DNA of 64,000 bases from an uncultured Actinomycetes bacterium. Its GTDB lineage: Bacteria; Actinomycetota; Thermoleophilia; Gaiellales; Gaiellaceae. The stretch lies in NCBI GenBank assembly GCA_963838985.1, contig CAWITF010000004.1:76280-140279 (forward strand). The letters run 5' to 3'. Made by a program: the position numbers and the translations under genes. Position 1 is the first letter of the stretch, and every line of letters starts with the position of its first letter. The notes beneath the pieces were generated by a model, which was not told where the DNA came from, ran no database searches, and worked only from the letters and a program-made list of their open reading frames with translations. Positions 300-47,520 of the stretch are shown here, one piece after another.

Positions 300-1087
300 T
301 CACGACTGCGGGTCGGGCGGAAGGCCGTAGACCTCGGGGTCGTCGAGCAGCAGGAAGAACGCGCCGCAGCCGCCGACGCCGTCGTCGGGGTCGCGGCGGT
401 AGAGCTGTGCGCCGTTCCAGCTCTCGGCCTGCAGCTTCGCGAGCCGCGCGTCGGCACGCTCGCGGAGCTCGTCGAGCGGGCCGAACTGGATCGACTTCGT
501 CGGGCACGCCTTCGCGCACGCCGGCTCGTGGCCGCCCTTCAGGCGGTCGTAGCAGAGCGTGCACTTCCAGACGCGGCCGTCCTCCTTCTTGCCGAGCGAC
601 GCGGGCAGGTCGGGCTTGAAGCCGACGTTGGCGTCGGAGGCGATGTGCCGCTTGTCGAGCACGCCGAACGGGCACGCGGGCACGCAGTAGCCGCAGCCGT
701 TGCAGATGTCCTCCTGCACGACGACCGTCCCGAACTCGGTGCGGAAGAGCGAGCCGGTCGGGCACACGTCGAGGCACGCAGCGTGCGTGCAGTGCTTGCA
801 CACGTCCGACTCCATCAGCCAGCGCAAACCAGTCGTTCCGTCGCCGTTCGTGTGTAGGGGCTTCTCCTGCTCGATGAAGGCGACGTGGCGCCACTGTTCG
901 CGTCGAGGTGCCCGGTGTTGTCGTACGAGTGGCCGGTCCAGTCGAGCCCGTCCTCCGGGATGAGGTTCCACTCCTTGCACGCGACCTCGCAGGCCTTGCA
1001 GCCGATGCAGACCGACGTGTCGGTGAAGAAGCCGACGCGCTCCTGCTTTTGCTCCTCGTAGGCTTCCCAACCTGCGGGCGCGCTCAT
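300..1087 (-). pseudogene. Formate dehydrogenase iron-sulfur (beta, FdnH-like) subunit with multiple 4Fe-4S motifs; one frame break near 897
   Basis: ORF 815..1162, from the Met at 1087 (MSAPAGWEAYEEQKQERVGFFTDTSVCIGCKACEVACKEWN), continues in ORF 300..1070 (DVCKHCTHAACLDVCP, CNGCGYCVPACP, CTLCYDR, ACAKACP). The ATG overlaps the alpha-subunit stop (ATGA). Confidence 0.85.
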
Positions 1088-4000
1088 GTCTGCTCCCGCA
1101 GGTCGTCGACGAACTCGGTGAGCGCCTTCCCGCGCGGTCGGCGACCCGGCCGGATCCCGCACGTCGCGGCCTTCACCTCCTGGATGTGCACGTTCGGGTC
1201 GAGCGCCATGTGCATCAGGTCGTTCGCGCTGTCACCCGCACTCAGCAGCCGCTGGCCCCAGTGGTAGGGCAGGCCGACCTGATGCGTCGTTCGCCCGTAC
1301 ACCGTCAACGGCGGGATGCGGTTCGTGACCATCACGCGCGCCTCGATCGCCGAGCGCGTGGTGTAGATCGTCGCCCAGCCGCCGTGCTCGAGCCCGGCCT
1401 CCGCCGCGAGCTCCGGCGAGCACTTCGCAGAACATCGCCGGCTGCAGCTCCGAGAGGTACGGAACCGAGCGCGACATGCCGCCTGCGGTGTGGTGCTCGG
1501 TCAACCGGTAGGTGGTGACGACGTACGGGAAGAGCTCGCTCGCGACCGGGTTGTACGGGTCCTCTTCGAGCTCCGGGTTCTGCTGGCGCGCCGGGTTCGC
1601 GCGCTGCGAGTAGAGCGCGTTCTCGAACGGCGACTCGTGCGGCTCGTAGTGCGCGGGTAAGCGGGCCGTCCTCGAGCCCTTGCGGGACGTAGAGCCACGA
1701 GCGGCCGTCGGCCTGCATGACGAACGGGTGGTCGCCGGCGATCGCGTCCTCCGCCTCGGCGCCGTCGGGCGGCCTGTAGTCGGGGGCCTTCGTCTCCTCG
1801 AAGTCCGGCGTGTCGAGGCCCGTCCACTTCTCGCCGTTCCACCAGACGTACTTCTTGCGCTCCGACCACGGGTCTCCGTCGGGGTCGGCGGATGCCCGGT
1901 TGTAGAGGATGCGCCGGTTGTTCGGCCAGGCCCACGCCCACTCCTGCGCGACGTAGCTCTGCTCCCAGTGCGGCTTCTTGCGGGCAGCCTGGTTGACGCC
2001 GTCCTTGTAGACGCCGCAGTAGATCCAGCAGCCGCAGGCGGTCGTGCCGTCGTCCTTCAACTTCGGATACGCGTCGAGCGGCTCGCCGCTCTCGATCGTG
2101 ACCCCGCCGATCTCCTTCAGAACCTGTTCGGCGCTCGGCTCCTGGAGCGCCGAGTGCGTCTGGTAATCCCACTTCAGCCACTTGACGAGGTCGTCGCGTG
2201 GCTCCTTCGAGTCCTTGAGGAGCGACTTGATGCGCCGGCCGAGGTGGAAGTAGAACCAGAGCTCGGAACGGCAGTCCTCCTTCGGCTCGACTGCCTGCCA
2301 GTGCCATTGCAGAAGACGCTGCGTGTTCGTGAACGAGCCGTCCTTCTCCGTGTGCGCGGCCGCCGGCATGAAGAAGACCTCCGTCGGGATCTCCTTCGTC
2401 ACGAGCTCGCCCGTCTCGATCTCCGGGCTGTCGTACCAGAACGACGCCGACTCGATCTCCACGAGGTCGCGCACGACGAGCCACTCGAGCTTCGCGAGCC
2501 CGAGGCGGTGCGCCTTCCCGTTCGCGTTGCCGACCGCCGGGTTCTCGCCGGCGATCAGGTAGCCCTTCACCTTGCCCTCGAGCATCTGCTGCAGCGTCCA
2601 GTAGACGGAGTTGTCCTCGTCGATGCGCGGCAGCCGGTCGAAGAGCCAGTCGTTGTCGTCGGTGGCGTGCTCGCCGAAGTACGACTTCATCAGGCTGACC
2701 CAGTACGCCGTGAAGTGGCCCCACCAGCCGCTCGGCGCGATGTTCGCCTTCGCGTAGTTGTCGAAGCCGCCGTAGTCCTCGGCCCTCGGCATCGGCAGGT
2801 AGCCGGGCAGCGTGTCGTACAGCGTCGGGATGTCGGTCGAGCCCTGGATCGACGCGTGACCGCGGAGCGCGACGATCCCGCCGCCCGGTCGGCCCATGTT
2901 GCCGAGCAGCTGCTGGATGATCGCGGCGCCGCGGATGTACTGCACGCCGACGGTGTGCTGCGTCCAGCCGACCGAATAGACGAACGCGCTCGTGCGCTCG
3001 CGGCCGGAGTTCTGCACGAGCGACTCGCAGACGTAGAGGAAGTCGTCGACCGAGACGCCGCACGTCTCGGCGACGAGCTCGGGCGTGTAGCGCTGATAGT
3101 GCTTCTTCAGCAGCTGGAAGACGCAGCGGGGATGCGTCAGCGCCGGGTCTTCCGACGGCGGCTCGCCGTGGCTCAGGCCGCCGCCGTGCCCGCCGTGCCC
3201 GGCCTCGTGGCCCTTCGTCTCGCGGTTCCCGGCGGCGCCGTGCGTCTCCATCCCCTCGTACGACCAGCTGTCCTTCTCGTACTTCGACTGCTCGGGATCC
3301 CAGCCGGAGAAGAAACCGTCGAGATCCTCGGTGTCGGCGAACGACTCGTCGATGATCACGGGCGCGTTCGTGTAGTGCTTGACGTACTCCTCGAACCAGA
3401 GGTCGTTCTGCAGGATGTAGTTCGCGATCCCGCCGAGGAACGCGATGTCGCTCCCGGCGCGGATGCCGACCCACTTCGACGCCATTGCCGACGTGCGCGT
3501 GAACCGCGGATCGATGTGGATGACCTTCGCACCCCGCTCGCGCGCTTCCATCACCCACTGGAAGCCGACCGGGTGGTTCTCCGCCATGTTCGAGCCCATG
3601 ATCACGATGCAGTCGGAGTTCTGCAGGTCCTGCTGGAAGTCCGTTGCACCGCCTCGCCCGAACGAGGTTCCCAGACTGGGAACCGTGGAGCTGTGTCATA
3701 TGCGCGCTTGGTTCTCGACCTGGACGATGCCGAGCGCAGTCAGCAGCTTCTTGATCAGGTAGTTCTCTTCGTTGTCGAGCGTCGCGCCGCCGAGATTGCC
3801 GATCGCCATCGTGCGGTTCGCCGGCGCGCCGTCGTCCGTCTCCGCCTGCCAGTTCGCCGCGCGCGTCTCGACGATGCGCTGCGCGATCATGTCCATCGCG
3901 GTCTCGAGCTCGAGCTCCTCCCACGCGTTTCCGTAAGGGCGCCGGTACTTGACCTTGTACTCGCGCAGCGGGCTCTGCACGAAGCTCTTCGACGCACTGC

Positions 4001-9367: not shown

Positions 9368-9988
9368 GTGGTGCACGTGCTGCTTGCAGTGCTCGCGATC
9401 GTCGCCTCGCCGCCGAACATGCCGAAGCTCGTGCTGACGCCGTCCCAGGTCGGCAGCGGGTACATCCTGCGGCCGCGCATGGACGGGTTCGGCGTCAAGA
9501 GCAACGCGACGCTCGATCTCTGCGGCCGCTCGGGCTATCCGAGCGAGAAGCTGCGTGTCGACCGCCTGCAGGTCGACTACGTGAAGCAGGGCGCGAAGGT
9601 CGGCCTTTCGAACGAGGTCGTCACGTACAAGCACGGCGGCGCCGCGCAGGCCATGCGCGAGGTGATTCGGCACGCCCGTACGTGCCCGCACACTCCGATC
9701 AATCCGGGGCCGGGTCTGCCGCCGCTCCGTTTCACGATGACCCTGCTGAAGGCCCCCGGGCTCCTCAAGGGGTACCTCTACGTGCGCGTGCGCGTGCAGG
9801 GGAAGGTGAAAGGCAAGAAGGTCGATCAGATCTCGTATGCCGTGTATCAGCGCCGCGGCGATGTGCTCTCGGGGACGTACAGCTTCGGAGCCAACACGAA
9901 GGCGCAGCAGCGATTCGCACTGCACGCGGCGCAGCAGAGCGCGCTGAACCTGCTCCGCGGCAAGGCGCTCGGCGGCCCAACCGCTTGA
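9368..9988 (+). CDS. Hypothetical protein with an N-terminal hydrophobic (signal-like) segment
   Basis: ORF 9368..9988. The composition is protein-like (K, Y, N present), unlike the Arg/Ala-rich spurious ORFs. No family recognised. Confidence 0.55.
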   Translation: MVHVLLAVLAIVASPPNMPKLVLTPSQVGSGYILRPRMDGFGVKSNATLDLCGRSGYPSEKLRVDRLQVDYVKQGAKVGLSNEVVTYKHGGAAQAMREVIRHARTCPHTPINPGPGLPPLRFTMTLLKAPGLLKGYLYVRVRVQGKVKGKKVDQISYAVYQRRGDVLSGTYSFGANTKAQQRFALHAAQQSALNLLRGKALGGPTA

Positions 9989-17606: not shown

Positions 17607-18034
17607 TGCAGGATCGCCTCCTCGATTCGCGGATAGGTGCCGCAGCGGCAGATGTTGCCCGCCATCTGGTGGCGGATCTCGTCGACGCTCGGGTCGGGGT
17701 TCGCGGCGACGAGCGCGGCGGCGGACACGACCTGACCCGGCGTGCAGAACCCGCACTGCACTGCGTCGGCGCGCACGAACGCGTCGATCAGCGGATGGTC
17801 GCGCAGTCCCTCGATCGTCGTCACCTCACCCTGCACGGTGTGCGCGAGCGTGATGCACGAGAGCGTTGGCGCGCCGTCGATCTGCACGGTGCACGCGCCG
17901 CAATGGCCCTCGTTGCACGCGATCTTCGTGCCGGTGAAGCCCAGCTCTTCGCGCAGCAGCTGCGCAAGGCTGATGCCGATCGGCGCGTCGACGACGTGCG
18001 CGTCGCCGTTGACGACGAGCTCGAGCTCAGGCAC
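17594..18034 (-). CDS. (2Fe-2S)-binding small subunit (CoxS-like)
   Basis: ORF 17594..18034: CNEGHCGACTV and QCGFCTPG...CRCGTY motifs. Confidence 0.9.
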   Translation of the reverse strand: MPELELVVNGDAHVVDAPIGISLAQLLREELGFTGTKIACNEGHCGACTVQIDGAPTLSCITLAHTVQGEVTTIEGLRDHPLIDAFVRADAVQCGFCTPGQVVSAAALVAANPDPSVDEIRHQMAGNICRCGTYPRIEEAILHWRD

Positions 18035-19183
18035 CGGTCGTCACCGCCACGATGTCGGCGAGGTGGATCAATCTCGACGTCGTGCGCGCGACGACGCGAG
18101 CTTCGTCGTCGGAGCTCGCCTCGGGGAGCAGGCGCCACAGCTCGCGCGCCGCGACGAGCAGCTCGCGGATCTGCTCGAGGTCATCGACGTGGCCGTTGCG
18201 CTCGTTCGTCGCGTTCAGCGCGAGCCCGAGCGCACCGAAGGTGTCCTGCTGGCGTGCGAAGAGCATCGGCATCGCCATCGTCAGGTACTGGTGGATGCGC
18301 GCGAGCGCCATCGGCTGCTGGAGGATCTCGGCGCCCTGCGGCTGCGACGGCTCGAGCGGCGGCTCGCCGTCGGCGATCCGGTTCGCGTTGCCGGCGAGGA
18401 GCTCGACGATCTGCGGCTCGGTCAGCCCGGCCGAGCGAGCGGTGCGCAGCGAGAGCAGAAGCGACTGCGGCTGCAGCCCGTACGGGTAGTCGGACGCGTA
18501 GAGAACCTGCTCCGGCGGCACGAGCCGGAAGAAGCTCAGCAGGTCGATCGCGCTCCAGACCGACGTGTCGAAGAAGACGCCCGCTCTGCCGGCGAAATGC
18601 GCCGCGAGGCCTGAGAGGTCGGCGATGCCGGCGTGCGCGATGATCAGCTGCGCGTCGCCGTGACGCTCGACGAGCCGTGCGAGGTTGTCGGCGATCGGCG
18701 GCAGCCCCCGTCCGCCGTGGATCAGGATCGGGACGCGGTGCTCGGCGCTCAGCGCGAAGACCGGGGCGAGGAGCTCGTCGGTGATCTCGAACTTCTGCGC
18801 TCGCGGGTGCAGCTTGATCCCGCGTGCACCGCGCGCGAGGCAGCGCTCCGCTTCCGCCACGGCGCCGTCGGCGAGCAGGTCGAGGCGGACGAAGGGGATC
18901 AGGCGGCCGCCGGCCTGCTCGGCGAACTGCAGCGTGCGGTCGTTCGCCGCGCGGAACGCCGGCACGCGGTCGGGCTCGTCGAGGCAGAACACGTTCGCGC
19001 GCGAGAAGCCGTAGGTGTCGAGCATCGCCGAGCAGCTCCTCGGGGCGGCCGACTCATCCCGTCGATGTCGTTGCCCAGGTGCGTGTGGGCGTCGAAGAGG
19101 TCTGCGCCCGCCGGCAGCTCCTTCTTCACCTCGGCCTCGAAGCCCGCGAAGAGCTCCTGCGCCCGTTCCAACGGCTCGTTCAC
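18027..19183 (-). pseudogene. Amidohydrolase-family (TIM-barrel metal-dependent hydrolase) protein; frame break(s) at about 19025-19055
   Basis: ORF 18899..19183 (MNEPLERAQELFAGFEAEVKKELPAGADLFDAHTHLGNDIDGM) joins ORF 18027..19025 (MLDTYGFSRANVFCLDEP...GIKLHP...ILIHGG...). Confidence 0.7.
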
Positions 19184-19206: not shown

Positions 19207-19854
19207 CTAGTTGAACGCGGGAGCGAGGATCCGGTCGAAGAAGACCCGCTCGGGCACGGCGCCGTCCCACTGCGGCACGCCGTTCACGACGACGCGCGGG
19301 ACCGACCAGACGTCCATCGAGTCGGCCAGCGCCGGAAACTCCGTCGACTCGATCGCCGACGCGCGGACTCGGGGTGAGGCGAGCGCCGCTTTGTACGCCA
19401 GCAGCACGGCCGGCGGGCAGTGCGGTCAAGTGGGCGTGACGAAGATGTCGATCGCCAGGTCGCGATCGAGCGCCGCGAGCCGTTCGAGCGACTGCTCGGA
19501 GAGCGACGACCTGCGCTTGCCTGCCTCGATCACGGCGCCGATGAGCGACGCGAGCTCGTAGCCCCACGGCAGGCCGTCGTAGCGGACGCCCGCGTCCTCG
19601 CCATCCGGCCGCACGGCGATCGCCGGGTAGCGCTCGAAGCCCGCGGGCTCCTCCTCGACCCTGCAGGTGACCTTGTCGGAGAGCGCGGCGAGCTCCTCGG
19701 CGATGCGCTGCGTCTCCGCGCCGAAGTCGATGTCGCGCGCACCGGGCAGCGGCGTCTCCTCGGGGCCGTGCGCGACGAGCAGCTCGACCGGGCGCTCGAG
19801 CGCGGCGAGGAGCTCGCGCACCTTCTCCTCTTCTTCCGGGCGGAAGAGCGGCAT
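19207..19854 (-). CDS. Glutaredoxin-like protein disulfide oxidoreductase with two thioredoxin folds. An in-frame TGA at 19426..19428 occupies the first position of the CxxC redox motif, making this a candidate selenoprotein (TPT-U-PHC).
   Basis: ORF 19426..19854 ends ...AIDIFVTPT at a TGA. ORF 19207..19407 is in the same frame, 7 codons on. The codons between read P-H-C-P-P-A, giving FVTPT[TGA]PHCPPAVLLAYKAAL. This parallels the FVTPTCPYCP active site of archaeal and bacterial PDO/glutaredoxin-like proteins. GVRYDGLPWGYELASLIG also matches the family. Confidence 0.7.
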
Positions 19855-32339: not shown

Positions 32340-33254
32340 GTGCCCGACGTCCTCGCGCCAGGGCTGCGCGTCGTCTTCGTGGGCATCAATCCCGGCCGCG
32401 TCTCGGCCGCGGCCGGCGCGCACTTCGCGAATCCGCGCAACGACTTCTGGCGGCTGCTGCACGCGGCACGCTTCACGTCGCGGCTCTACGAGCCGAGCGA
32501 GCAGTTCGAGCTGCCGAACGAGGGCATCGGCGTCACGAACGCCGCGTATCGGACGACGCCGGGCTCCGGCGACCTGCGGCGCGGCGACTTCGCCGGCTCG
32601 GCCGAGCGGCTCGAGCAGATCGCGCGCGAGCTGCAGCCGCGATGGCTCGCGTTCGTCGGCAAGGAGGCGTACCGCGGTGCGTTCCGGGAGCGGCCGGAGC
32701 TCGGCGTGCAGGAGCGCCGGCTCGGCGAGACGCAGCTCTTCGTGCTGCCGTCGACGTCACCCGCGAACGCGGCCGTGCCGTGGGACGAGCGGTTGCGCTG
32801 GTTCGCCGAGCTTGCCGGTCGCTCGGTCGGCCTGCCGTGGCGGCTCGGTGTTCGCGCGCTGCTCGTCGACAGTGCGAACCGAGTGCTCCTGATGCGCTAC
32901 GGCAACCAGTACTCGACCTGGTGGGTCACTCCCGGCGGCGGCAAGAACCCCGAGGAGTCGGACGAGCAGGCGCTGCGACGCGAGCTGCGAGAGGAGACGG
33001 GGCTTCGCGACGTCGAGATCGGGCCGCTGCTCTGGAGCCGCGAGCAGTACTTCTGCGACGAGCCCGGGCACTGCGGCCAGCGGGAGAACGTCTACCTGGT
33101 CCGGGTCGACGCGTTCGAGCCGCAGCCGGAGCTCGACCTCGCGGCCGAGGGCTGCCACGAGCAGCGGTGGTTCACGCTCGACGAGCTCGACGGCCTGCCG
33201 ACGAGGCCGGAGGATCTCGCGACGAGGACAGCTAGCTTCGCCAGCGGTTGGTGA
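32340..33254 (+). CDS. Fusion protein: G/U mismatch-specific uracil-DNA glycosylase (Mug) domain plus a C-terminal NUDIX hydrolase domain
   Basis: ORF 32340..33254. The N-terminus [37 protein letters not shown] is Mug-like. The C-terminus carries the Nudix box [24 protein letters not shown]. Confidence 0.75.
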
Positions 33255-34947
33255 TCGGCGTCCGCCGGTCGCGGCCGAACGCCTTCGGCCGCAGCCGCAC
33301 GCCGGGCGGCGCCTGCCGGCGCTTGTACTCGGCGCGGTCGATCAGCGCACGGCGCGCTCGACGACGTCGGGGTCGAAGCCGTCGCTCGAGAGCTCCTCGA
33401 GCGTGCGGTCCTCTTCGACGTAGGCGACGAGCACCGGTCGAGCACCGGGTAGGGCGGCAGCGAGTCCTCGTCGAGCTGGTCGGCGCGAAGCTCGGCGCTC
33501 GGCGCGCGGTCGATGATCGTCTGCGGGATCAGCTCGCGCCCCGCGCGCTCGTTCAGGTGCTTCGAGAGCCGGAAGACGTCGGTCTTGAAGACGTCCTTCA
33601 GCAGCGCAAAGCCGCCTGCCATGTCGCCGTAGAGCGTCGCGTAGCCGACCGACATCTCCGACTTGTTGCCGGTCGCGACGAGCAGCCAGCCGAACTTGTT
33701 CGAGAGCGCCATCAGCAGCACGCCGCGGATGCGCGCCTGCAGGTTCTCCTCGGTCAGGTCGGGCTCGCGTCCTTCGAAGCTCGGCGCGAGCGCGCTGACG
33801 AAGCCCTCGACCATCGGCTCGATCGCGATCTCGCGGAAGTCGCAGCCGAGGTTCTCGGCGAGCCGCTGCGCGTCGCCGCGCGTTCCCTCCGACGAGTAGC
33901 GCGACGGCATCGAGACGCAGTGCACTCGCTCCGGCCCCAGCGCCTCGGCGGCGAGCGCGGCGACGAGCGCCGAGTCGATCCCGCCGGAGACGCCGACGAC
34001 GATCTCGCTGAAGCCGTTCTTGCGCACGTAGTCGCCGAGGCCGAGCTCCAGCGCGAGCCGCATCTGCTCGAGGTCGTCGCAGAACGGCGTCAGCGTCGGC
34101 TCGAGCGTGTCGTCGTGCGAGTGCGGAGCGCCGATGTGCACGACGTCGACCGCACCGAGCTCGCCGCGATCCTGCGCGAGCGCACGCCGGCGCGTGTCGG
34201 TGAGCCGGCGCGACACGACCGACGACGGGTCGATGTCGACGACGAGCAGCTCCTCCGCGAAGCCGCACGCGCGCGCGAGCACGGTGCCCTCGTCGTCGAT
34301 CACGAACGAGTGGCCGTCGAAGATCAGCTCGTCCTGGCCGCCGACCGTGTTGCAGAGCGCGACGAACGACGCGGTGTCGCGCGCGCGTGTGCGGAACATC
34401 TCCTCGCGCTCACGGTCGCGTAGCAAGTGGAACGGCGACGCGGAGATGTTGACGATCAGCTGCGCGCCGGCGAGCGCGAGATCGGTCGCGGGCGGGCCGG
34501 GCTGCCACATGTCCTCGCAGATCGGTCACGCCGACGAGCGTGTCGCCGTGCTCGAAGAGCGTGATGCCGTCGCCCGGCGCGAAGTAGCGGAACTCGTCGA
34601 AGACGCCGTAGTTCGGGAGGAAGCGCTTCTTGACGAACGCCTTCACCTCGCCGCCCGCGCAGACCGCGGCCGCGTTGAAGAGATCGCCGCTCGAAGTGCG
34701 GCGTGCCGACGACCGCGACGATCCCGCGCGCCTCGCGCGCGATCCGCTCGAGCGACGCTTCGGCGGCTCGTACGAAGCCCGGCCTCAGCAAGAGATCCTC
34801 CGGCGGATAGCCGGTCACGGCGAGCTCCGGGAAGAGCGCGATGTCGGCGCCGGCCGCCTTCGCCTCGCCGAGCCGCTCGAGGATGAGCGCGCGATTGCCG
34901 TCGAGATCGCCGACGACGGGGTTGATCTGCGCAAGTGCGATGCGCAT
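33232..34947 (-). pseudogene. nadE: Glutamine-dependent NAD+ synthetase (nitrilase domain plus NAD synthase domain); about four frame breaks, near 34689, 34523, 33436 and 33343
   Basis: Four pieces join: ORF 34456..34947 (MRIALAQINPVVGDLDGN...FPELAVTGYPPEDL), ORF 34410..34646 (KAFVKKRFLPNYGVFDEFRYF), ORF 33092..34510 (ICEDMWQPGP via own reading; VGVSGGIDSALVA; GNKSEMSVGYATLYGD) and ORF 33342..34268 tail ([30 protein letters not shown]). A last segment is from my own translation ([37 protein letters not shown], stop 33234..33232). Confidence 0.8.
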
Positions 34948-34955
34948 CGCTATTC

Positions 34956-36831
34956 CTAGAGTACGCGGCTGATCGCGTCGAGCGATTCAGGGTTCTCGAG
35001 CGACGAGAGGTCGCCCGGATCCTTGCCGAGCACGCGGGCGCGCACGGCGCGGCGGACGATCTTCGCGCTGCGCGTCTTCGGCAGCGCGTCGACCCAGAGG
35101 ATCCGCTCGGGCTTGAACGCCTTCCCGAGCACGTCGGTCACGGCCGAGGCCACCCGCTCGTCCTTCTGCTTCTCGCCTGGCTTCGGGACGCAGAAGATCC
35201 AGGCGACCTCCCCCTTGACCGCGTGCGGCACGCCGATCGCCGCCGCCTCGGCGACGATGCCGCTGCCGATCGCGGCGGACTCGAGCTCGGCCGGCCCGAT
35301 CCGCTTGCCGGCGATGTTCAGCGTGTCGTCGCTCCGGCCGTGCAGGAACCAGTAGCCGTCCTCGTCGATCGACGCCCAGTCGCCGTGCGTCCACACGCCG
35401 GGGAAGCGGCGCCAGTACGTCTCGAGGTAGCGCTCGTCGTCCCCCCAGATCCCGCGCGTCATCCCGGGCCACGGGCTGCGGCAGACGAGCTCGCCGACCT
35501 GCTTGCGGACCGGCCGGCCGAGCTGGTCGACGACGTCCATGTCCATCCCGAGGGCGGGGAAGCCGAGCGCGACCGGCTTGATCGGCTCGGTGATCACCGT
35601 CGTCAGGAAGCACGCGCCGACCTCGGTGCCGCCGCTCACGTTCACGATCGGCGTCGTCGAGCCGCCGACCTCGTCGAAGAGCCAGCGGTACGGGTCGGGG
35701 TTCCACGGCTCGCCGGTCGTGCAGAACGCCTTCAGCGAGGAGAGGTCCTGCGTCGGTGCGCCGTGCGGGATCAGCGCGCGCACGAGTGTGGGCGAGAGGC
35801 CGAGCATCGTCACGCGCTCCGACTCGACGAGCGACCACAAGCGGTCTTCGGGCCAGTCGGGCGCGCCCTCGGCGAAGACGATCGTCGCGCCGGCGGCGCC
35901 TGCCGCCGACGACCGTCCACGGGCCCATGATCCAGCCCATGTCCGTTGCGAAGTGAACCCGGTCTCCGGGCTTCACGTCGGCCTGGTAGACGGCCTCGCG
36001 CACGATCGAGACGAGGAAGCCCGCGGTGACGAGGTTCGCGCCTTTCGGGCGACCGGTCGTCCCCGACGTGTACGCGAGCAGATACGGCGCCTCGGAGTCG
36101 ACCTCGACCGGGGCGAGCGTGCCCGGCTGCCGTGTCACGAGCTCCGGCCATTCGCGCTCGTCCCGCCGCCACACGATCACGTGCTCGAGCGCATGCGGGC
36201 CCGCCTCGGTGAGCGTCTCTGCCATCTCGATCCGCTTTCCGCGCCGCAGTGACCAGTCGGCGCAGATCGCGACCTTCGCCTGCGAGTCCTCGAGCCGCGA
36301 CGCGATCGCAGGCCCCGCGAAGCCGGAGAAGATCGGCACGTGGATCGCGCCGACGTGCGCGCACGCGTGCGCGGCGATCGCCACGGCCGGCGACATCGGC
36401 ATGTAGATCGCGACGCGGTCGCCTTCGACGACCCCGAGCTCGACGAGCGCCTCGGCGAGCTGCGTCACCTGGCGCGATGCCTCCGCGTAGGTGAGCGACT
36501 CGCGTGCTCCGTCCTCGTAGCGGCCGACGAGCGCCTCGTCGCCGGGGCGCTCGGCCGCGAAGCGGTGCAGGCAGACGCGTGCGACGTTCACCCGGCCGCC
36601 GTTGAACCATGTCGTCCACTCCGGGCCGCGCGAGTCGTCGAGGACAGACGTCCACGGCTGCGAGAACTCGATCCCGAGGTCGTCGACGAGCTCGCCCCAG
36701 AAGCGGGCCGGCTCGCGCACCGACAGCGCGTGCAGCTCGGCGTAGTCGGCGACCTCGAAGCGGTGCAGCAGGCGCGTGACGTTCGCCCGGTCGGCCTGCT
36801 CGGGCGTGGGCTGCCAGATGAAGTCGCTCAC
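34956..36831 (-). pseudogene. AMP-dependent acyl-CoA synthetase/ligase (acetoacetyl- or acetyl-CoA synthetase-like); frame break near 35900
   Basis: ORF 34987..36831 (…LLAYTSGTTGRPKG…DMGWIMGPWTVVGG) continues in ORF 34956..35840 (…NVSGGTEVG…SDDTLNIAGKRIGPAELE…LPKTRSAKIVRR). Confidence 0.8.
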
Positions 36832-36901: not shown

Positions 36902-38347
36902 ATGAAAGCACGGCATTCTCGCCGAGGAGAATCGCAAGTGGTGGACGCTCATGGCCGTCGTCGTTCGGCCTGTTCATGATCATGCTCGACAACACGGTCG
37001 TGAACGTCGCGCTGCCGACGATGGAGAAGGACCTGCACATGTCGATCTCGCGTCGCTCGAGTGGGTCGTCGTCGCCTACGCGCTGACGTTCGCGTCGCTC
37101 ATGATCACCGGCGGCAAGCTCGCGCGACATGTTCGGCCGCGAGAAGATCTTCATCGGTCGGGCTCGCGATCTTCACGCTCGCCTCGCTCGCCTGCGGGCT
37201 CGCCCGACGATCGGCTTCCTGATCGCCGCGCGCGCGGTGCAGGGCGTCGGCGCGGCGCTGATGAACCCGGCGACGCTCTCGATCATCGTGGCGACGTTCC
37301 CGCCGAAGCAGCGCGGCCAGGCGATCGGGATCTGGGCCGGCGTCTCGGCGCTCGCGCTCGCGATCGGCCCGCTCATCGGCGGCCTGATCGCGCAGCAACA
37401 TCAACTGGAACTGGATCTTCTTCATCAACGTCCCGATCGGCGCGCTCGGCATCGTCGTCTCGCAGCTCGTGATCCGCGAGTCGCGCGACACCTCGCACGA
37501 GCAGAGCATCGACCTGCCGGGCCTGCTCACCTCCGGATCGGCTTCCTGCTTCGCGCTGAGCTACGCGCTGATCGAGGGGAACGCGCACGGCTGGGGCTCC
37601 GCCGAGATCCTCGGCCTCTTCGGGCGTCGCGTCGTCTTGCTCGGCGGCGCTTCGTCGTGCTCGAGGCTCCGGCAGCGCCTGCCGATGCTCGACCTCTCGC
37701 TCTTCCGGATCGGCGCGTTCGCCGGCGCGAACATCGTCGCGATGCTCGTCTCGCTCGCGATGTTCGGCGTCTTCTTCTTCGTCTCGCTCTACGTCCAGAA
37801 CATCCTCGGGTACTCGCCGACGAAGGCGGGCGCGATCTTCCTGCCGATGACGGTGCTGATCATCCTCATCGCGCCGCTCGCGGGGCGGTTCTCCGACCGC
37901 GTCGGCTCGCGCTGGCTGATGGGCGCCGGGATGACGCTGCTCGGCATCTCGCTCCTGCTCTACCAGCGGGTCGGCCTGCACTCGAACTTCTGGACGCTGC
38001 TGCCGGCGCTGCTCCTCGGCGGCGTCGGGATGGCGATGACGATGTCGCCGATGACCTCGGCCGCGATGGGCGCGGTGCCGGTCGACAAGGCCGGCGTCGG
38101 CTCGGGCGTCCTCAACAGCTTCCGCCAGGTCGGCGGCTCGCTCGGGATCGCGCGTGATGGGCGCGATCCTCGCGTCGTACGCGCATCCACGCGCCGAAGC
38201 ACGCTCGCCGCGCAGCAGGACTACGTCAACGGCCTGCACGCCGCGCTCGCCGTGAGCGCCGCGATCAGCTTCGGCGCGGCGATCGTCGGCGATCGTGCTC
38301 GTGCGGACGACGGCCGCAGGTCGAGCGGGCGCACGTGGCGGAGGTGA
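36902..38347 (+). pseudogene. MFS drug:H+ antiporter (DHA2/EmrB-QacA type), broken by at least 8 single-base frame changes as given
   Basis: Recognisable segments alternate between all three + frames: NRKWWTLMAVVV / LFMIMLDNTVVNVALPTM (own reading), LEWVVVAYALTFASLMITGGKLA (ORF 36951), MFGREKIFIG and PTIGFLIAARAVQGVGAALMNPATLSIIVATFPPKQRGQAIGIWAG (ORF 37129), and NVPIGALGIV...PMLDLSLFRIGAFAGANIV...GVLNSFRQVGGSLGIA (ORF 37469). Confidence 0.75.
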
Positions 38348-42785: not shown

Positions 42786-43631
42786 GTGGGCGCCAACGGA
42801 TACGCGAAGCAGGTTCTGGTCTCGAGCGACTGGGTCGCGGAGCACCTGAACGACGAGAACGTCGTCGTCGCGGAAGTCGACGAGAACCCCGACGTCTACG
42901 AAGAGGGGCACATCCCCGGCGCGGTGAAGCTGCACTGGAAGGAGGACCTCCAGGATCCCGTCGAGCGCGACCTCGTCGAGAAGGAGCGCTTCGAGCAGCT
43001 CCTCGCCGAGCGCGGCATCTCGAACGACACGACGGTCGTGCTCTACGGCGACAAGAACAACTGGTTCGCCGCCTACGCCTACTGGTATCTGAAGATCTAC
43101 GGCCACGAGGACGTGCGCATCCTCGACGGCGGCCGCCAGAAGTGGATCGACGAGAGCCGCGAGCTCACGACCGAGCCGCCGCAGCCCTCGCCGAAGCAGT
43201 ACTCAGCCAAGGAGCGCGACGAGTCGATTCGCGCGCGCCGCGACCAGGTGCTCGAGTGGATCGGCTCCGGCGAGCGCGCGCTCGTCGACGTGCGCAGCCC
43301 GCAGGAGTACTCCGGCGAGCTGATGGCGCCGCCCGGCTACGAGCAGGAAGGCGCGTCACGCACCGGCCACATCCCGACCGCGCAGTCGATTCCGTGGGCG
43401 CAGGCCGTCGGCGACGACGGCACGTTCAAGTCGGCGGACGTCCTCCGCGAGCTCTACGGCGTCAAGGGCGTGACCGACGACAAGAAGGTGACGGCGTACT
43501 GCCGCATCGGCGAGCGCAGCGCACACACATGGTTCGTGCTGCACGAGCTGCTCGGATTCGGCGACGTGCGCAACTACGACGGCAGCTGGACCGAGTGGGG
43601 CAACCTCGTCGACGTGCCGATCGAACGCTAG
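42786..43631 (+). CDS. Thiosulfate/3-mercaptopyruvate sulfurtransferase (tandem rhodanese domains)
   Basis: ORF 42786..43631: EGHIPGAVKLHW, and the active-site loop YCRIGERSAHTWF. Confidence 0.85.
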   Translation: MGANGYAKQVLVSSDWVAEHLNDENVVVAEVDENPDVYEEGHIPGAVKLHWKEDLQDPVERDLVEKERFEQLLAERGISNDTTVVLYGDKNNWFAAYAYWYLKIYGHEDVRILDGGRQKWIDESRELTTEPPQPSPKQYSAKERDESIRARRDQVLEWIGSGERALVDVRSPQEYSGELMAPPGYEQEGASRTGHIPTAQSIPWAQAVGDDGTFKSADVLRELYGVKGVTDDKKVTAYCRIGERSAHTWFVLHELLGFGDVRNYDGSWTEWGNLVDVPIER

Positions 43632-44335
43632 GCGCCGGACAGCGGCACGTCGCCGTTGCGCGAGCCGGCGCGCTCGATCACGACCTGCGGGACGCGTGCG
43701 CGCGGCGACAGCCGCAGGAGCATACGCACGACCTCGGCGCAATCCTCCGGGCGGATCATCTCGTCGTGCCCCAGGCCGCTCCACTCGGCCATCGGCGTGT
43801 CGACGAAGCCGGGGCAGATCGCGACCGCGCGCACGCCGTCCCCGTCGAGCTCCTCGTTCAGCGAGCGCGTGAGCGAGATCACTGCGGCCTTCGTCGCGCC
43901 GTAGGTGGCGAGGCCGGGCGTCGGGAGCGTGCCCGCGATCGACGCGAGATTGACGATCCAGCCCTGCGACTCGCGCAGCAGCGGGATCGCCGCGCGCGTG
44001 ACGAGGAAGAGCCCGCGCAGGTTGACCGACAGCTGCAGGTCGAAGTGCTTCGGCTGCAGGTCCTCGACCGTCCCGCCGATGCCGATGCCGGCGGAGTTCA
44101 CGAGCATGTCGAGCCTTCCGTGACGCTCGCGATGCTCGGCGACGAGCCGCTCGCAGGCATCCGCATCGCCCACGTCGGCGGCGATCGCGACAGCACCGAG
44201 CTCCTCGGCGGCGGCCTCGACCTTCTCGGCCCGGCGCGACGCGAGCGTGAGTGCGAAGCCCTCGTCGCGGAGCATGCGCGCGATCGCAAGCCCGATGCCG
44301 GAGGAGCCACCTGTGACGAGCGCAGCGCGATCCAT
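43628..44335 (-). CDS. Short-chain dehydrogenase/reductase (SDR) family oxidoreductase
   Basis: ORF 43628..44335: VTGGSSGIGLAIA, NSAG, YGATKAAV. Confidence 0.85.
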   Translation of the reverse strand: MDRAALVTGGSSGIGLAIARMLRDEGFALTLASRRAEKVEAAAEELGAVAIAADVGDADACERLVAEHRERHGRLDMLVNSAGIGIGGTVEDLQPKHFDLQLSVNLRGLFLVTRAAIPLLRESQGWIVNLASIAGTLPTPGLATYGATKAAVISLTRSLNEELDGDGVRAVAICPGFVDTPMAEWSGLGHDEMIRPEDCAEVVRMLLRLSPRARVPQVVIERAGSRNGDVPLSGA

Positions 44336-44463: not shown

Positions 44464-45474
44464 ATGACCGCGCTCACGAGCCTCACGGTCGGCGGCGGGT
44501 GCGCCGCGAAGTACTCCGCCGCACGACTCGAGGAGCTGCTCAAGGGCTTCGTCCCGCTCGAGGCCGAGAACCTGCTCGTCGGCCTCGCACCGGCGGACGA
44601 CGCCGCCGTCTACAAGCTCGACGACGACAAGGCGATCGTCTTCACCGTCGACTTCTTTCCACCGCTCGTCGACGATCCCGCGCTCTTCGGCCGGATCGCG
44701 GCGACGAACGCGTTGAACGACGTCTTCGCGATGGGCGGCTCGCCGCTCCTCGCGCTCTCGATCGCCGCCTTCCCCGAGTCGCTGCCCATCGGCGTCCTCG
44801 GCGCGGTGTTCTCCGCCGCCGCGGAGCAGGTGTCCGCAGCCGGTGCGCTGCTCGCCGGCGGCCACACGATCCGCGACGACGAGCCGAAGTACGGACTCGC
44901 GGTCGTCGGCACGGTGCATCCGACCGGGATCTGGACGAAGAGCGCCGCCCAGCCCGGCGACGCGCTCTTCCTGACGAAGCCGCTCGGCACCGGGCTCGTG
45001 CTCGCGGGTCACGGCAAGGAGCTCGTGAGCCGGGACGCTTTCGACGCGGCGACGCGCTGGATGACGACGTTGAACGCCGACGCCGCGACGGCACTGCGCC
45101 CGTTCTCGCCGAACGCCGTGACCGACGTCACCGGCTTCGGCCTCTTCGGGCACGCGCACGAGATGGCCGACCGGAGTGGCGTGCGCATCGTCCTCCACTC
45201 GCTGCCGGCGCTCGACGGCGCGCTCGACGTCGCGCGCGCGGGTGTGCGTACCGGCGGTGACCCGCGCAACCGCGAGTTCGCTCCTGTCGAGGCGGACGGT
45301 GTGAGCGACGAGCTGCTCGCACTCGGCTACGACGCGCAGACCGCAGGCGGCCTGCTCGTCTCGCTCCCGGCCGAGAAGGCGTTGTCGCTCGCGTCGGAGT
45401 TCGCAGCGCGCGGCCTCTATCTGCACCGCGTCGGCTCGGTCGAGTCCGGCGCCGGCGTCGCCGTAGCCGCTTAG
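44464..45474 (+). CDS. selD: Selenide, water dikinase (selenophosphate synthetase), Cys form
   Basis: ORF 44392..45474 from the internal MTALTSLTVGGGCAAKYS (the GxGCxxK active-site loop). Also DDAAVYKL, TVDFFPP, NALNDVFAMGG, VTDVTGFGL. Confidence 0.85.
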   Translation: MTALTSLTVGGGCAAKYSAARLEELLKGFVPLEAENLLVGLAPADDAAVYKLDDDKAIVFTVDFFPPLVDDPALFGRIAATNALNDVFAMGGSPLLALSIAAFPESLPIGVLGAVFSAAAEQVSAAGALLAGGHTIRDDEPKYGLAVVGTVHPTGIWTKSAAQPGDALFLTKPLGTGLVLAGHGKELVSRDAFDAATRWMTTLNADAATALRPFSPNAVTDVTGFGLFGHAHEMADRSGVRIVLHSLPALDGALDVARAGVRTGGDPRNREFAPVEADGVSDELLALGYDAQTAGGLLVSLPAEKALSLASEFAARGLYLHRVGSVESGAGVAVAA

Positions 45475-46051: not shown

Positions 46052-47520
46052 GCGGCTGCCTCGAGGAGCTCGTCGTGCTCGACCGGGCGCACGTGCGCGG
46101 GACGGAGCATCGACACGCCCGCGCCGAGCAGCGAGATGCCCGCGAGCACCCAGAGCGCGAGGTGCATGTTCGAGATGAACGGCGAGAGCTGCGCGTTCGA
46201 GAGCCCCGACGTGATCCCGGAGAAGATCTTGAACAGCACGTCCTTGGGCACAGCGGACGTCACGATCGCCATCACGAACGCGATCGAGATCACGGCGCCG
46301 GTGTTCTGCAGCATCACGCGCGCGCCTGCCGCGATCCCGCGCCGGTGCGACGGGACGGATCCCATCATCGCCGCCGTGTTCGGGCTGTTGAACATGCCCG
46401 AGCCGATGCCGACGAGCGCGAGCCAGAGCGCGCTCCAGACGTACGCGGTGTGCGCCTGCAGCATCGTCATGCCCGCGAGCCCGGCGGCGCTCACGACCAT
46501 CCCGAGCGCCGCGAGACCGCGCGAGCCGTGACGGTCGGCGATGTAGCCGGCGATCGGCGACGCGACGAGCATCCCGATCGCGAGCGGCGCGAGCTCGAGC
46601 CCGGCCATGATCGGCGACTGCCCCTGCGGGCCCTGGAAGTAGAAGACGAACAGGAACATCAGCGCGAAGCGCGAGAGGCCGTTGATGAAGGCGGCGCCCG
46701 ACGCGGCGCTGAAGAGCCTGTTCGAGAAGAGCGAGAGGTCGAGCATCGGCGCGCGCCCATGGCGCTCGATCAGCACGAACGCCGGCAGCAGCACGGCCGC
46801 CGCGATCAGGCCGCCGATCACGAGGCTGTTGTTCCAGCCGGAGAGCCCGCCCTTCGACAAGGCGAGCACGAGCCCGGTCAGGCCGACGACGAACGTCGAC
46901 GTCCCGAGCAGGTCGAGCCCGCGCTGCTCGTCGCGGCCGGACATCTCGTGCAGCACGAGCCATGCCCAGATCGAGCCGGCGATCCCGAAGGGCAGGTTGA
47001 ACCAGAAGACCCACGGCCACGAGATCGCGACGAGTGCGCCGCCGAGCACCGGGCCGATCACGAGCCCGACCGCGGCGACCATCGTGTTCGTGCCCATCGC
47101 GAGCCCGAGCTCCTTCTTCGGAAACGCGTCGGTGACGAGCGCCGCGGCGTTCGCGAAGAGGAAGGCGCCACCGACTCCCTGCAGCACGCGCCAGAGGATC
47201 AGCTGCGTGCCGCTGCCTGAGAAGCCGGCGCCGAGCGACGCCGCCGAGAAGAGCAGGAAGCCGAGCACGTAGGCGTTCTTGCGCCCGAAGAGATCGGAGA
47301 GCCGTCCCGCCGTGAGCACGAGCACGGTCGAGACGATCATGTAGACGAGGATCACCCAGACGAGCTGCAGCAGCGTCGTGTGCAGGCTGCGCTCGAGATC
47401 GGGCAGGGCGATGATCAGCGTGCCCGAGTTCACGGTGGCGAGCAGCATCCCGAGGCTCGTGCACGTCAGGACCCACCACTTGTAGTGCTCGCTGTGTCGC
47501 CGTGTCCGAAGAAAGCTCAT
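46048..47520 (-). CDS. MFS transporter, DHA2 (14-TM, EmrB/QacA-like); intact
   Basis: ORF 46048..47520: GRLSDLFGRKNAYVLGF, VLQGVGGAFLFANAAALV, and many TM helices. Confidence 0.85.
   Translation of the reverse strand: MSFLRTRRHSEHYKWWVLTCTSLGMLLATVNSGTLIIALPDLERSLHTTLLQLVWVILVYMIVSTVLVLTAGRLSDLFGRKNAYVLGFLLFSAASLGAGFSGSGTQLILWRVLQGVGGAFLFANAAALVTDAFPKKELGLAMGTNTMVAAVGLVIGPVLGGALVAISWPWVFWFNLPFGIAGSIWAWLVLHEMSGRDEQRGLDLLGTSTFVVGLTGLVLALSKGGLSGWNNSLVIGGLIAAAVLLPAFVLIERHGRAPMLDLSLFSNRLFSAASGAAFINGLSRFALMFLFVFYFQGPQGQSPIMAGLELAPLAIGMLVASPIAGYIADRHGSRGLAALGMVVSAAGLAGMTMLQAHTAYVWSALWLALVGIGSGMFNSPNTAAMMGSVPSHRRGIAAGARVMLQNTGAVISIAFVMAIVTSAVPKDVLFKIFSGITSGLSNAQLSPFISNMHLALWVLAGISLLGAGVSMLRPAHVRPVEHDELLEAAA

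Follow-up and report, generated by a model that had tools for sequence, protein, structure and literature searches.

A 64,000-nucleotide stretch of contig CAWITF010000004.1 from an uncultured bacterium of the Gaiellaceae (assembly GCA_963838985.1, positions 76,280 to 140,279; referred to at its full length as the window) carries on its reverse strand a gene, 19854..19207 (-), which very probably encodes one 215-residue selenoprotein with the UGA codon 143 decoded as selenocysteine (Sec). This reading is based on the in-frame TGA, on homologues that pair Sec with Cys at the same position, on a conserved hairpin 3' of the TGA, on the fold of the protein, on a selD gene and on a second Sec-encoding gene in the window. 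A preliminary description of the same DNA had proposed that the TGA is read as Sec in a thioredoxin-fold redox protein, and this is borne out by the Sec and Cys codons of the orthologs, by a hairpin that conforms to the model of bacterial selenocysteine insertion sequence (SECIS) elements, and by a full-length match to the TIGR02187.2 family.

The complete gene (19207..19854 (-)) begins with an ATG at 19854..19852, comprises 215 codons and ends with a TAG stop at 19209..19207, within a region of ~70% G+C. In the sequence it is divided into a 142-aa open reading frame (ORF), 19854..19426 (-), the translation of which terminates with FVTPT at the TGA 19428..19426, and a 66-aa ORF, 19407..19207, which lies in the same frame and for which the ORF lister took the GTG at 19407 as start. 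Between the TGA and this GTG there are six sense codons, CCG CAC TGC CCG CCG GCC, encoding PHCPPA, and the joined product reads ...LAIDIFVTPT*PHCPPAVLLAYKAALASP... through to the TAG. Coordinates and translation are thus in agreement with the preliminary description, which had reported two ORFs in one frame, split by the TGA and six sense codons, as well as this joined product. The TGA (19426..19428 (-)) is codon 143 and specifies U143, which opens the UPHC motif and is its attacking residue, and both the translation and the conservation of the Cys-form homologues mark U143-P144-H145-C146 (19417..19428 (-)) as a UxxC redox motif. Other adjacent ORF pairs that share a frame occur in the window (stops at 9986, 42744, 48500, 56385, 62656, and 63532), none of which has a redox motif around the stop. 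TGA serves as an ordinary stop codon in this 70% GC actinobacterial lineage, and no sign of TGA reassignment was seen.

The codon was compared across relatives in a scan of one genome per species of the Genome Taxonomy Database (GTDB), which returned 80 loci, mostly titled as Gaiellaceae, Thermoleophilia or Actinomycetes/Actinomycetota metagenome-assembled genomes (MAGs), with one locus (L020) labelled Acidobacteriota. Identity of the encoded proteins to the window protein is in the range of 48-83%. The codon that aligns with codon 143 is TGA in 68 loci, TGC in 11, TGT in one, and TAA or TAG in none; the downstream frame is intact. The question raised in the preliminary description, namely whether orthologs have Cys or TGA at this codon, is thereby answered with TGA in 68/80 and TGC/TGT in 12/80 loci, and the frame as well as the remainder of the UxxC motif continue intact past the TGA, with coding sequence on both sides of it that is conserved as amino acids in the 68 TGA-bearing loci. 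The best 120 protein clusters from databases include 59 full-length proteins with FVTPTCPHC and 59 that end exactly at ...VTPT, the latter being 131-184 aa long (nearly all 142 aa) and in many cases labelled 'AhpF' by the source. One of these truncated clusters (P0037) is identical to the 142-aa ORF of the window, and U is present in none of the best 120 database entries. A metagenome homologue with 66% identity (P0035) has Trp at the Sec/Cys position (VFVTPTWPHC); its codon is a genuine TGG, or else a TGA that the gene caller of the source rendered as Trp.

Cys forms are found at several places among the relatives. The nearest relatives of two singletons (L006 and L012) are Sec forms with 83-86% identity, as are those of a pair of Cys forms (L046 and L054), with 87-88%; one small Cys clade consists of L060, L067, L068, and L070, and the most distant group (L075, L076, L078, and L079) is also of the Cys form. 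Given this scattered distribution, Sec/Cys exchange has therefore happened several times. As to the quality of the loci, two from long-read MAGs with the TGA form (L074 and L080) show frameshifts or stops in the N-terminal domain, upstream of position ~3300, and the database entry P0054 is a read-through product with two frameshifts; indel errors are common in this assembly set.

The SECIS-type hairpin lies within the coding sequence (19396..19415 (-)) and was delineated by minimum free energy (MFE) folding, RNAalifold, synonymous sites and the criteria for bacterial SECIS (bSECIS) elements. With the U of the UGA numbered as +1, its 5' arm CGCCGGC (+14..+20) and 3' arm GCUGGCG (+27..+33) form a perfect 7-bp stem, including one G.U pair, which closes the loop CGUGCU (+21..+26, window positions 19408..19403) with G22 and U23 at 19407/19406. 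The hairpin starts 10 nt 3' of the TGA and has an energy of -12.4 kcal/mol. The preliminary description had seen only an imperfect stem at +11 to +32, which turned out to be mis-registered, the conserved helix being the 7 bp between +14..+20 and +27..+33. Lower-stem pairs of the MFE fold (CCGC/GCGG and UG/CA) were rejected, as they are not conserved by RNAalifold over 67 sequences.

Within the 68 TGA genes, the third positions of codons +4..+10 (CCG CCG GCC GTG CTG CTG GCG) are nearly invariant, with entropies of 0, 0, 0, 0.11, 0, 0, and 0.11 bits that sum to 0.22 bits, whereas the same codons sum to 6.08 bits (0.65-1.25 bits per codon) in the 12 genes with Cys. At the fourfold-degenerate codons that flank this stretch, the TGA genes have ~1-1.6 bits per codon, and between codons -30 and +44 no second stretch of seven codons comes nearly as low. 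RNAalifold on the 67 distinct 60-mers of the TGA genes returns the same 7-bp helix, each pair of which is kept in 66-67 of the 67 sequences, and of 69 TGA sequences (67 distinct 60-mers) 68 fold into the complete helix, with energies between -12.1 and -12.9 kcal/mol, while the remaining one lacks just the closing pair. Variation in the element is restricted to the loop positions +24/+25 (C25 to U in seven genes, G24 to U in one), and G22 and U23 are invariant across the TGA genes. In the Cys genes, by contrast, the helix is broken in nine of 12 and kept in three (L046, L054, and L060), of which L060 has an unchanged hairpin and L046 and L054 have the loop CGUCUU (codons +4..+10, at ~3440..3460 of each locus); these three have the appearance of recent changes from Sec to Cys in which a fossil SECIS persists. 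Judged from these alignments, the hairpin is under nucleotide-level selection in the TGA genes only.

The bSECIS model specifies a loop of 3-9 nt, a stem of 4-16 bp, a UGA-to-loop distance of 16-37 nt and an MFE of <= -7.5 kcal/mol, with a G among the first two loop positions that is usually followed by G or U (PMC13188914). The hairpin falls within this model throughout, having a 6-nt loop, a 7-bp stem, a UGA-to-loop distance of 17 nt, -12.4 kcal/mol and G22-U23. It was also considered whether the hairpin might be a dispersed repeat, which was rejected, since the single look-alike in the window (46783..46802 (-)) was judged to be a chance product of codon bias. The look-alike (CGGCGGC-CGTGCT-GCTGCCG) has the same loop and two mutually compensating stem changes, lies inside the ORF of a major facilitator superfamily (MFS) transporter and codes for AAVLLP in preferred codons; it has no upstream in-frame TGA, the only TGA being out of frame in CTGATC.

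In profile searches, for which the joined product was scored with C substituted for U, it matches the NCBIfam model TIGR02187.2 ('PDO_seleno_TRX, protein disulfide oxidoreductase') with E = 1.5e-50 and 171.5 bits over model positions 3-207 of 209, and models for the N-terminal domain (NTD) of AhpF give weaker NCBIfam matches. The best match among solved structures is the 'glutaredoxin-like protein' of Pyrococcus horikoshii (1J08, E = 3e-30, residues 14-211), the protein disulfide oxidoreductase (PDO) of P. furiosus (1A8L) matches at E = 2e-28, and the PDOs of Aquifex and Aeropyrum as well as AhpF rank next. The assignment in the preliminary description to the PDO or glutaredoxin-like family with two thioredoxin folds is thus supported by TIGR02187.2 and by 1J08/1A8L. 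An N-terminal thioredoxin-like fold without CxxC spans residues ~1-115 (19510..19854 (-); 1J08 alignment and homologue model), and the C-terminal thioredoxin fold, which bears the UxxC motif, spans residues ~120-215 (19210..19497 (-); Pfam and homologue model), with the Pfam domain Thioredoxin_3 matching residues 134-210 (E = 1.7e-13).

In the structure-sequence alignment, the TGA takes the position of Cys146 of 1A8L, the first Cys of the C-terminal FVTPT-CPYC-P, and likewise of the first Cys of CPYC in 1J08, so that the earlier proposal that the TGA replaces the attacking Cys of FVTPT-C-P-x-C-P holds. The N-terminal CQYC of the archaeal proteins has no counterpart in the window protein according to the 1J08 alignment, and its sole N-terminal Cys (C64) is outside any CxxC; therefore the protein has one redox centre, as in the NTD of AhpF. 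By its sequence it resembles the single-site AhpF-NTD subtype and not the two-site P. furiosus PDO (PfPDO). Among 30 Cys-form homologues, C143, P144, and C146 are invariant and H145 is nearly so, and Cys homologues of the full 215-aa length reach 82% identity. The structure model was built for one of them, P0002 (80% identical), in place of the window protein, and has a predicted local distance difference test (pLDDT) score of 93.4 and a predicted template modelling (pTM) score of 0.91; superposed on 1J08, 1A8L, 2YWM, the AhpF NTD (1ZYN), and 2HLS, it yields template modelling (TM) scores of 0.81-0.87. Two consecutive thioredoxin folds within ~215-230 residues are found in both the 1J08 alignment and the P0002 model. 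By the secondary structure of the model, residue 143 is predicted to sit between strand 133-139 and helix 146-159, which is the canonical place of the attacking residue in the thioredoxin fold, and the UxxC site thus comes at the beginning of helix 1 of the C-terminal fold.

The window holds two further genes that relate to selenium. selD, which encodes the selenium donor enzyme required for Sec synthesis, is located at 44464..45474 (+), as stated in the preliminary description, and is a selenide, water dikinase of the Cys type (GGGCAAK) that scores 331 bits against TIGR00476 (cutoff 125); its translation from ATG 44464 is MTALTSLTVGGGCAAK. Near selD lie genes for a short-chain dehydrogenase (43628..44335 (-)) and for a tandem-rhodanese protein (42786..43631 (+)), and the rhodanese might have a role in selenium delivery. 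The second UGA-Sec gene encodes the formate dehydrogenase alpha subunit FdhA, with a Sec-TGA at 3696..3698 (-) in the context ...ENQARI*HSSTVPSLGTSFGRGG; the pieces flanking this TGA match NF041513, a model for actinobacterial formate dehydrogenases, at positions 3-185 and 187-883, which places the TGA at model position 186, its canonical site, and corroborates the Sec-containing FdhA that had been reported before. The fdhA TGA is followed by a SECIS-like hairpin, GGUUCCCA / GUC / UGGGAACC, at +15..+33 (3666..3684 (-); MFE and centroid fold), with an 8-bp helix and a loop that opens with GU (+23/+24), 19 nt past the UGA. The fdhA and PDO hairpins are of the same layout, as expected if one SelB serves both. 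Toward the 3' end of fdhA, within 1084..3695 (-), the fragment after the Sec codon matches NF041513 only to position 883 of 1067, the ORF ends at 1332, and an ORF with high third-position G+C (GC3), 1084..1500 (-), overlaps the end of fdhA, which suggests another frameshift there.

Were the TGA a true stop, the locus would encode a 142-aa protein and a separately initiated 66-aa fragment starting from GTG 19407, and the conserved nucleotides would reflect coupling of termination and reinitiation. This is the version that gene callers annotate in 59 clusters, and the GTG at codon +7 is kept in 67 of the 68 TGA genes; this GTG sits in the hairpin loop, so that its conservation is explained by the SECIS. 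With a true stop, the PHC-PP-A codons would go untranslated, yet they are conserved as amino acids and complete the redox motif, and the fragment, beginning at V150, would lack the active site as well as the first strand of the thioredoxin fold. In addition, the stop codon is always TGA (68/68) and relatives with 81-86% identity have Cys in one continuous ORF, and we regard termination at this codon as highly improbable. The idea that the TGA arose from a TGC/TGT Cys codon, through an error of sequencing or assembly or through an inactivating (pseudogene) mutation, could appeal to lesions that do exist in the assembly (two 1-nt insertions in an amidohydrolase gene and several genes with partial-model matches, see below), yet 68 genomes that were assembled independently, in many studies and on many platforms, share this TGA, which effectively refutes it and leaves it with practically no probability. 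Moreover, both gene halves are under purifying selection, the hairpin is conserved specifically in TGA genes, and the error type of the window is indels, not substitutions. That the TGA is not an indel artefact had been argued before and stands, given the single frame on both sides, the indel nature of the lesions and the recurrence of the TGA in independent assemblies.

Recoding of the UGA that does not, or not only, lead to Sec would involve either near-cognate read-through with Trp or Cys, or insertion of Cys via tRNA-Sec at low selenium. Other systems are known to insert Cys at Sec-UGA codons when selenium is limiting, the homologue P0035 has W at this position, and of the Sec machinery it is selD that was seen in the window. 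However, the SECIS-type hairpin, the spacing that it shares with the fdhA element, selD and the catalogued UxxC family point to the SelB pathway, and TGA is an ordinary stop in this lineage with no reassignment seen, hence such recoding has as slight a probability as a true stop.

For the decoding of codon 143 as Sec, a number of points count on the negative side. The score of 171.5 bits is 13.5 bits lower than the curated equivalog cutoff of TIGR02187.2 (185). Single-sequence folding gives the hairpin a z-score of -1.46 relative to shuffles, with 15 of 200 shuffles being equally stable, a weak value, as is to be expected in a region of ~70% GC. The helix is invariant and shows no covariation, and the support for the structure therefore comes from synonymous-site conservation and not from compensatory changes. 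No Rfam family matches in the whole window at gathering thresholds, and the sole match for 19250..19550 at E <= 10 is a meaningless sroD on the opposite strand; the Rfam test is uninformative for this element. ARAGORN finds no tRNA, and thus no tRNA-Sec, in the 64-kb window, and neither selA nor selB is among the 29 window ORFs that were scanned against NCBIfam/Pfam, which include the flanks of selD and leave out smaller ORFs. selD by itself could serve selenouridine or Se-cofactor pathways. Finally, we infer rather than observe the incorporation of selenium and the binding of SelB, and the same holds for the partners of the protein in redox reactions and for its physiological substrate. Unlike the single-sequence thermodynamics, the comparative signal of the hairpin is, as judged from the aligned genes, far beyond chance.

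A mechanism for the selenoprotein can be drawn from established bacterial Sec decoding and from thioredoxin-fold chemistry. The hairpin would act as a bacterial SECIS and bind GTP-bound SelB with Sec-tRNA(Sec), which would be delivered to the ribosome paused at the UGA. In the folded protein, the selenolate of U143, at the N-terminus of the active-site helix, would attack a disulfide or sulfenic acid of the substrate, C146 would resolve the mixed selenenylsulfide, and a flavoenzyme of the thioredoxin-reductase type would re-reduce the Se-S bond. By analogy to PDO and the AhpF NTD, likely clients would be protein disulfides or partners of the peroxiredoxin type. Among the neighbouring genes that were analysed, none was recognised as encoding a thioredoxin reductase or a peroxiredoxin.

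An Amidohydro_2 gene begins 23 nt downstream of the selenoprotein gene and is syntenic with it in 74 of the 80 loci, beyond it follow the 2Fe-2S and molybdopterin-binding subunits of an enzyme of the xanthine-dehydrogenase/CoxL type, and an acetyl-CoA synthetase gene is divergent to the selenoprotein gene. The Sec form could point to a specific redox role that is tied to the downstream amidohydrolase and Mo-hydroxylase genes. In the window, the Amidohydro_2 gene (18027..19183 (-)) is broken by two single-base insertions ~30 nt apart, near 19055 and 19027, as seen in comparison to intact loci (L001, L003, and L010), so that the main body (ATG 19025) is out of frame with the HxH N-terminus (GTG 19183); this lesion is either an indel error of the assembly or a pseudogene. 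Partial matches to family models were also found for an NAD+ synthase (153-477 of 546), an acetate-CoA ligase paralog (only 343-642 of 649) and an EmrB-type MFS protein (180-402 of 485), and the ORFs with such partial matches lie at 33092..34510 (-), 34956..35840 (-), and 37469..38347 (+). Such partial matches would fit an assembly with numerous indel lesions.

Among the species representatives, 68 of 80 loci (85%) have the Sec form, and the 20-nt SECIS is frozen at the nucleotide level across ~50-85% protein identity. That this reflects a lineage-wide selenium dependency of the Gaiellaceae, largely aerobic bacteria that rank with the most abundant actinobacterial groups of soil, dominated by the Sec form, undescribed and mis-annotated, is a proposal that we put forward tentatively and rate slightly short of even. 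Public databases split or truncate the gene (the window product is stored as an unnamed protein of 142 aa, and 59 of the best 120 clusters end at ...VTPT), and many annotations in Gaiellaceae would be put right by a rule that looks for the invariant 20-nt hairpin. The finding means that, in an uncultured actinobacterial family abundant in soil, the use of Sec is not confined to formate dehydrogenase but extends to a redox protein of the thiol-disulfide type. Furthermore, the Sec/Cys pairs at 81-88% identity, some of them with a fossil SECIS, represent a natural series for the exchange of Sec to Cys. What is known of selenoprotein families and of the decoding mechanism is unchanged by it.

A PDO selenoprotein family with UxxC has been described before, with ABB15282.1 from Carboxydothermus hydrogenoformans as reference and further members in Symbiobacterium thermophilum and Asgard archaea (PMC13188914; PMC9312934; PMC1794560). 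A survey from 2006 lists the family in C. hydrogenoformans and S. thermophilum. Reviews credit it to their reference 12, which is probably the study of the prokaryotic selenoproteome from 2004, and the NCBIfam model carries 'seleno' in its own name. The family is hence known. For Gaiellales or Thermoleophilia, no paper that deals with selenoproteins was found, and the occurrence of the family in this lineage appears to be undescribed and systematically mis-annotated. The window protein and the catalogued family are alike in the full-length TIGR02187 match, in having one Sec as first residue of UxxC and in the common occurrence of Cys homologues, with the likeness to ABB15282.1 resting on the family model and not on a direct alignment; they differ in lineage, which here is the Gaiellaceae/Thermoleophilia of soil Actinomycetota, and in the score, which here is just under the equivalog cutoff.

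The PDOs with solved structures (PfPDO 1A8L, P. horikoshii 1J08, A. aeolicus 2AYT/2YWM, and A. pernix 2HLS) also consist of two fused thioredoxin folds in ~215-230 aa, and their C-terminal FVTPT-C-P-x-C-P site aligns residue by residue with the window protein. However, the attacking residue of these PDOs is Cys, and the archaeal members contain a further CxxC in the N-terminal fold, whereas the window protein has UxxC and an N-terminal fold without CxxC. Like the NTD of AhpF (1ZYN, 1HYU, 4O5Q, and 5H29), to which the P0002 model superposes with TM scores of 0.81-0.86, it is built of two such folds and has its only redox centre in the second one; if it works as that domain does, it would pass electrons from a flavoprotein reductase on to a peroxiredoxin. 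In AhpF, the domain is fused to a thioredoxin-reductase-like module, whereas the window protein stands alone and is neighboured by the amidohydrolase and Mo-hydroxylase subunits. As for the RNA element, the best-studied experimental bacterial SECIS is that of E. coli fdhF, from which the PDO hairpin differs in having no bulged U and no sequence similarity. With the bSECISearch consensus, it has in common that an intra-ORF stem-loop is located 3' of the UGA, with a small loop that has GU at its start, a UGA-to-loop distance of 17 nt and a stable energy (PMC13188914, Fig. 2).

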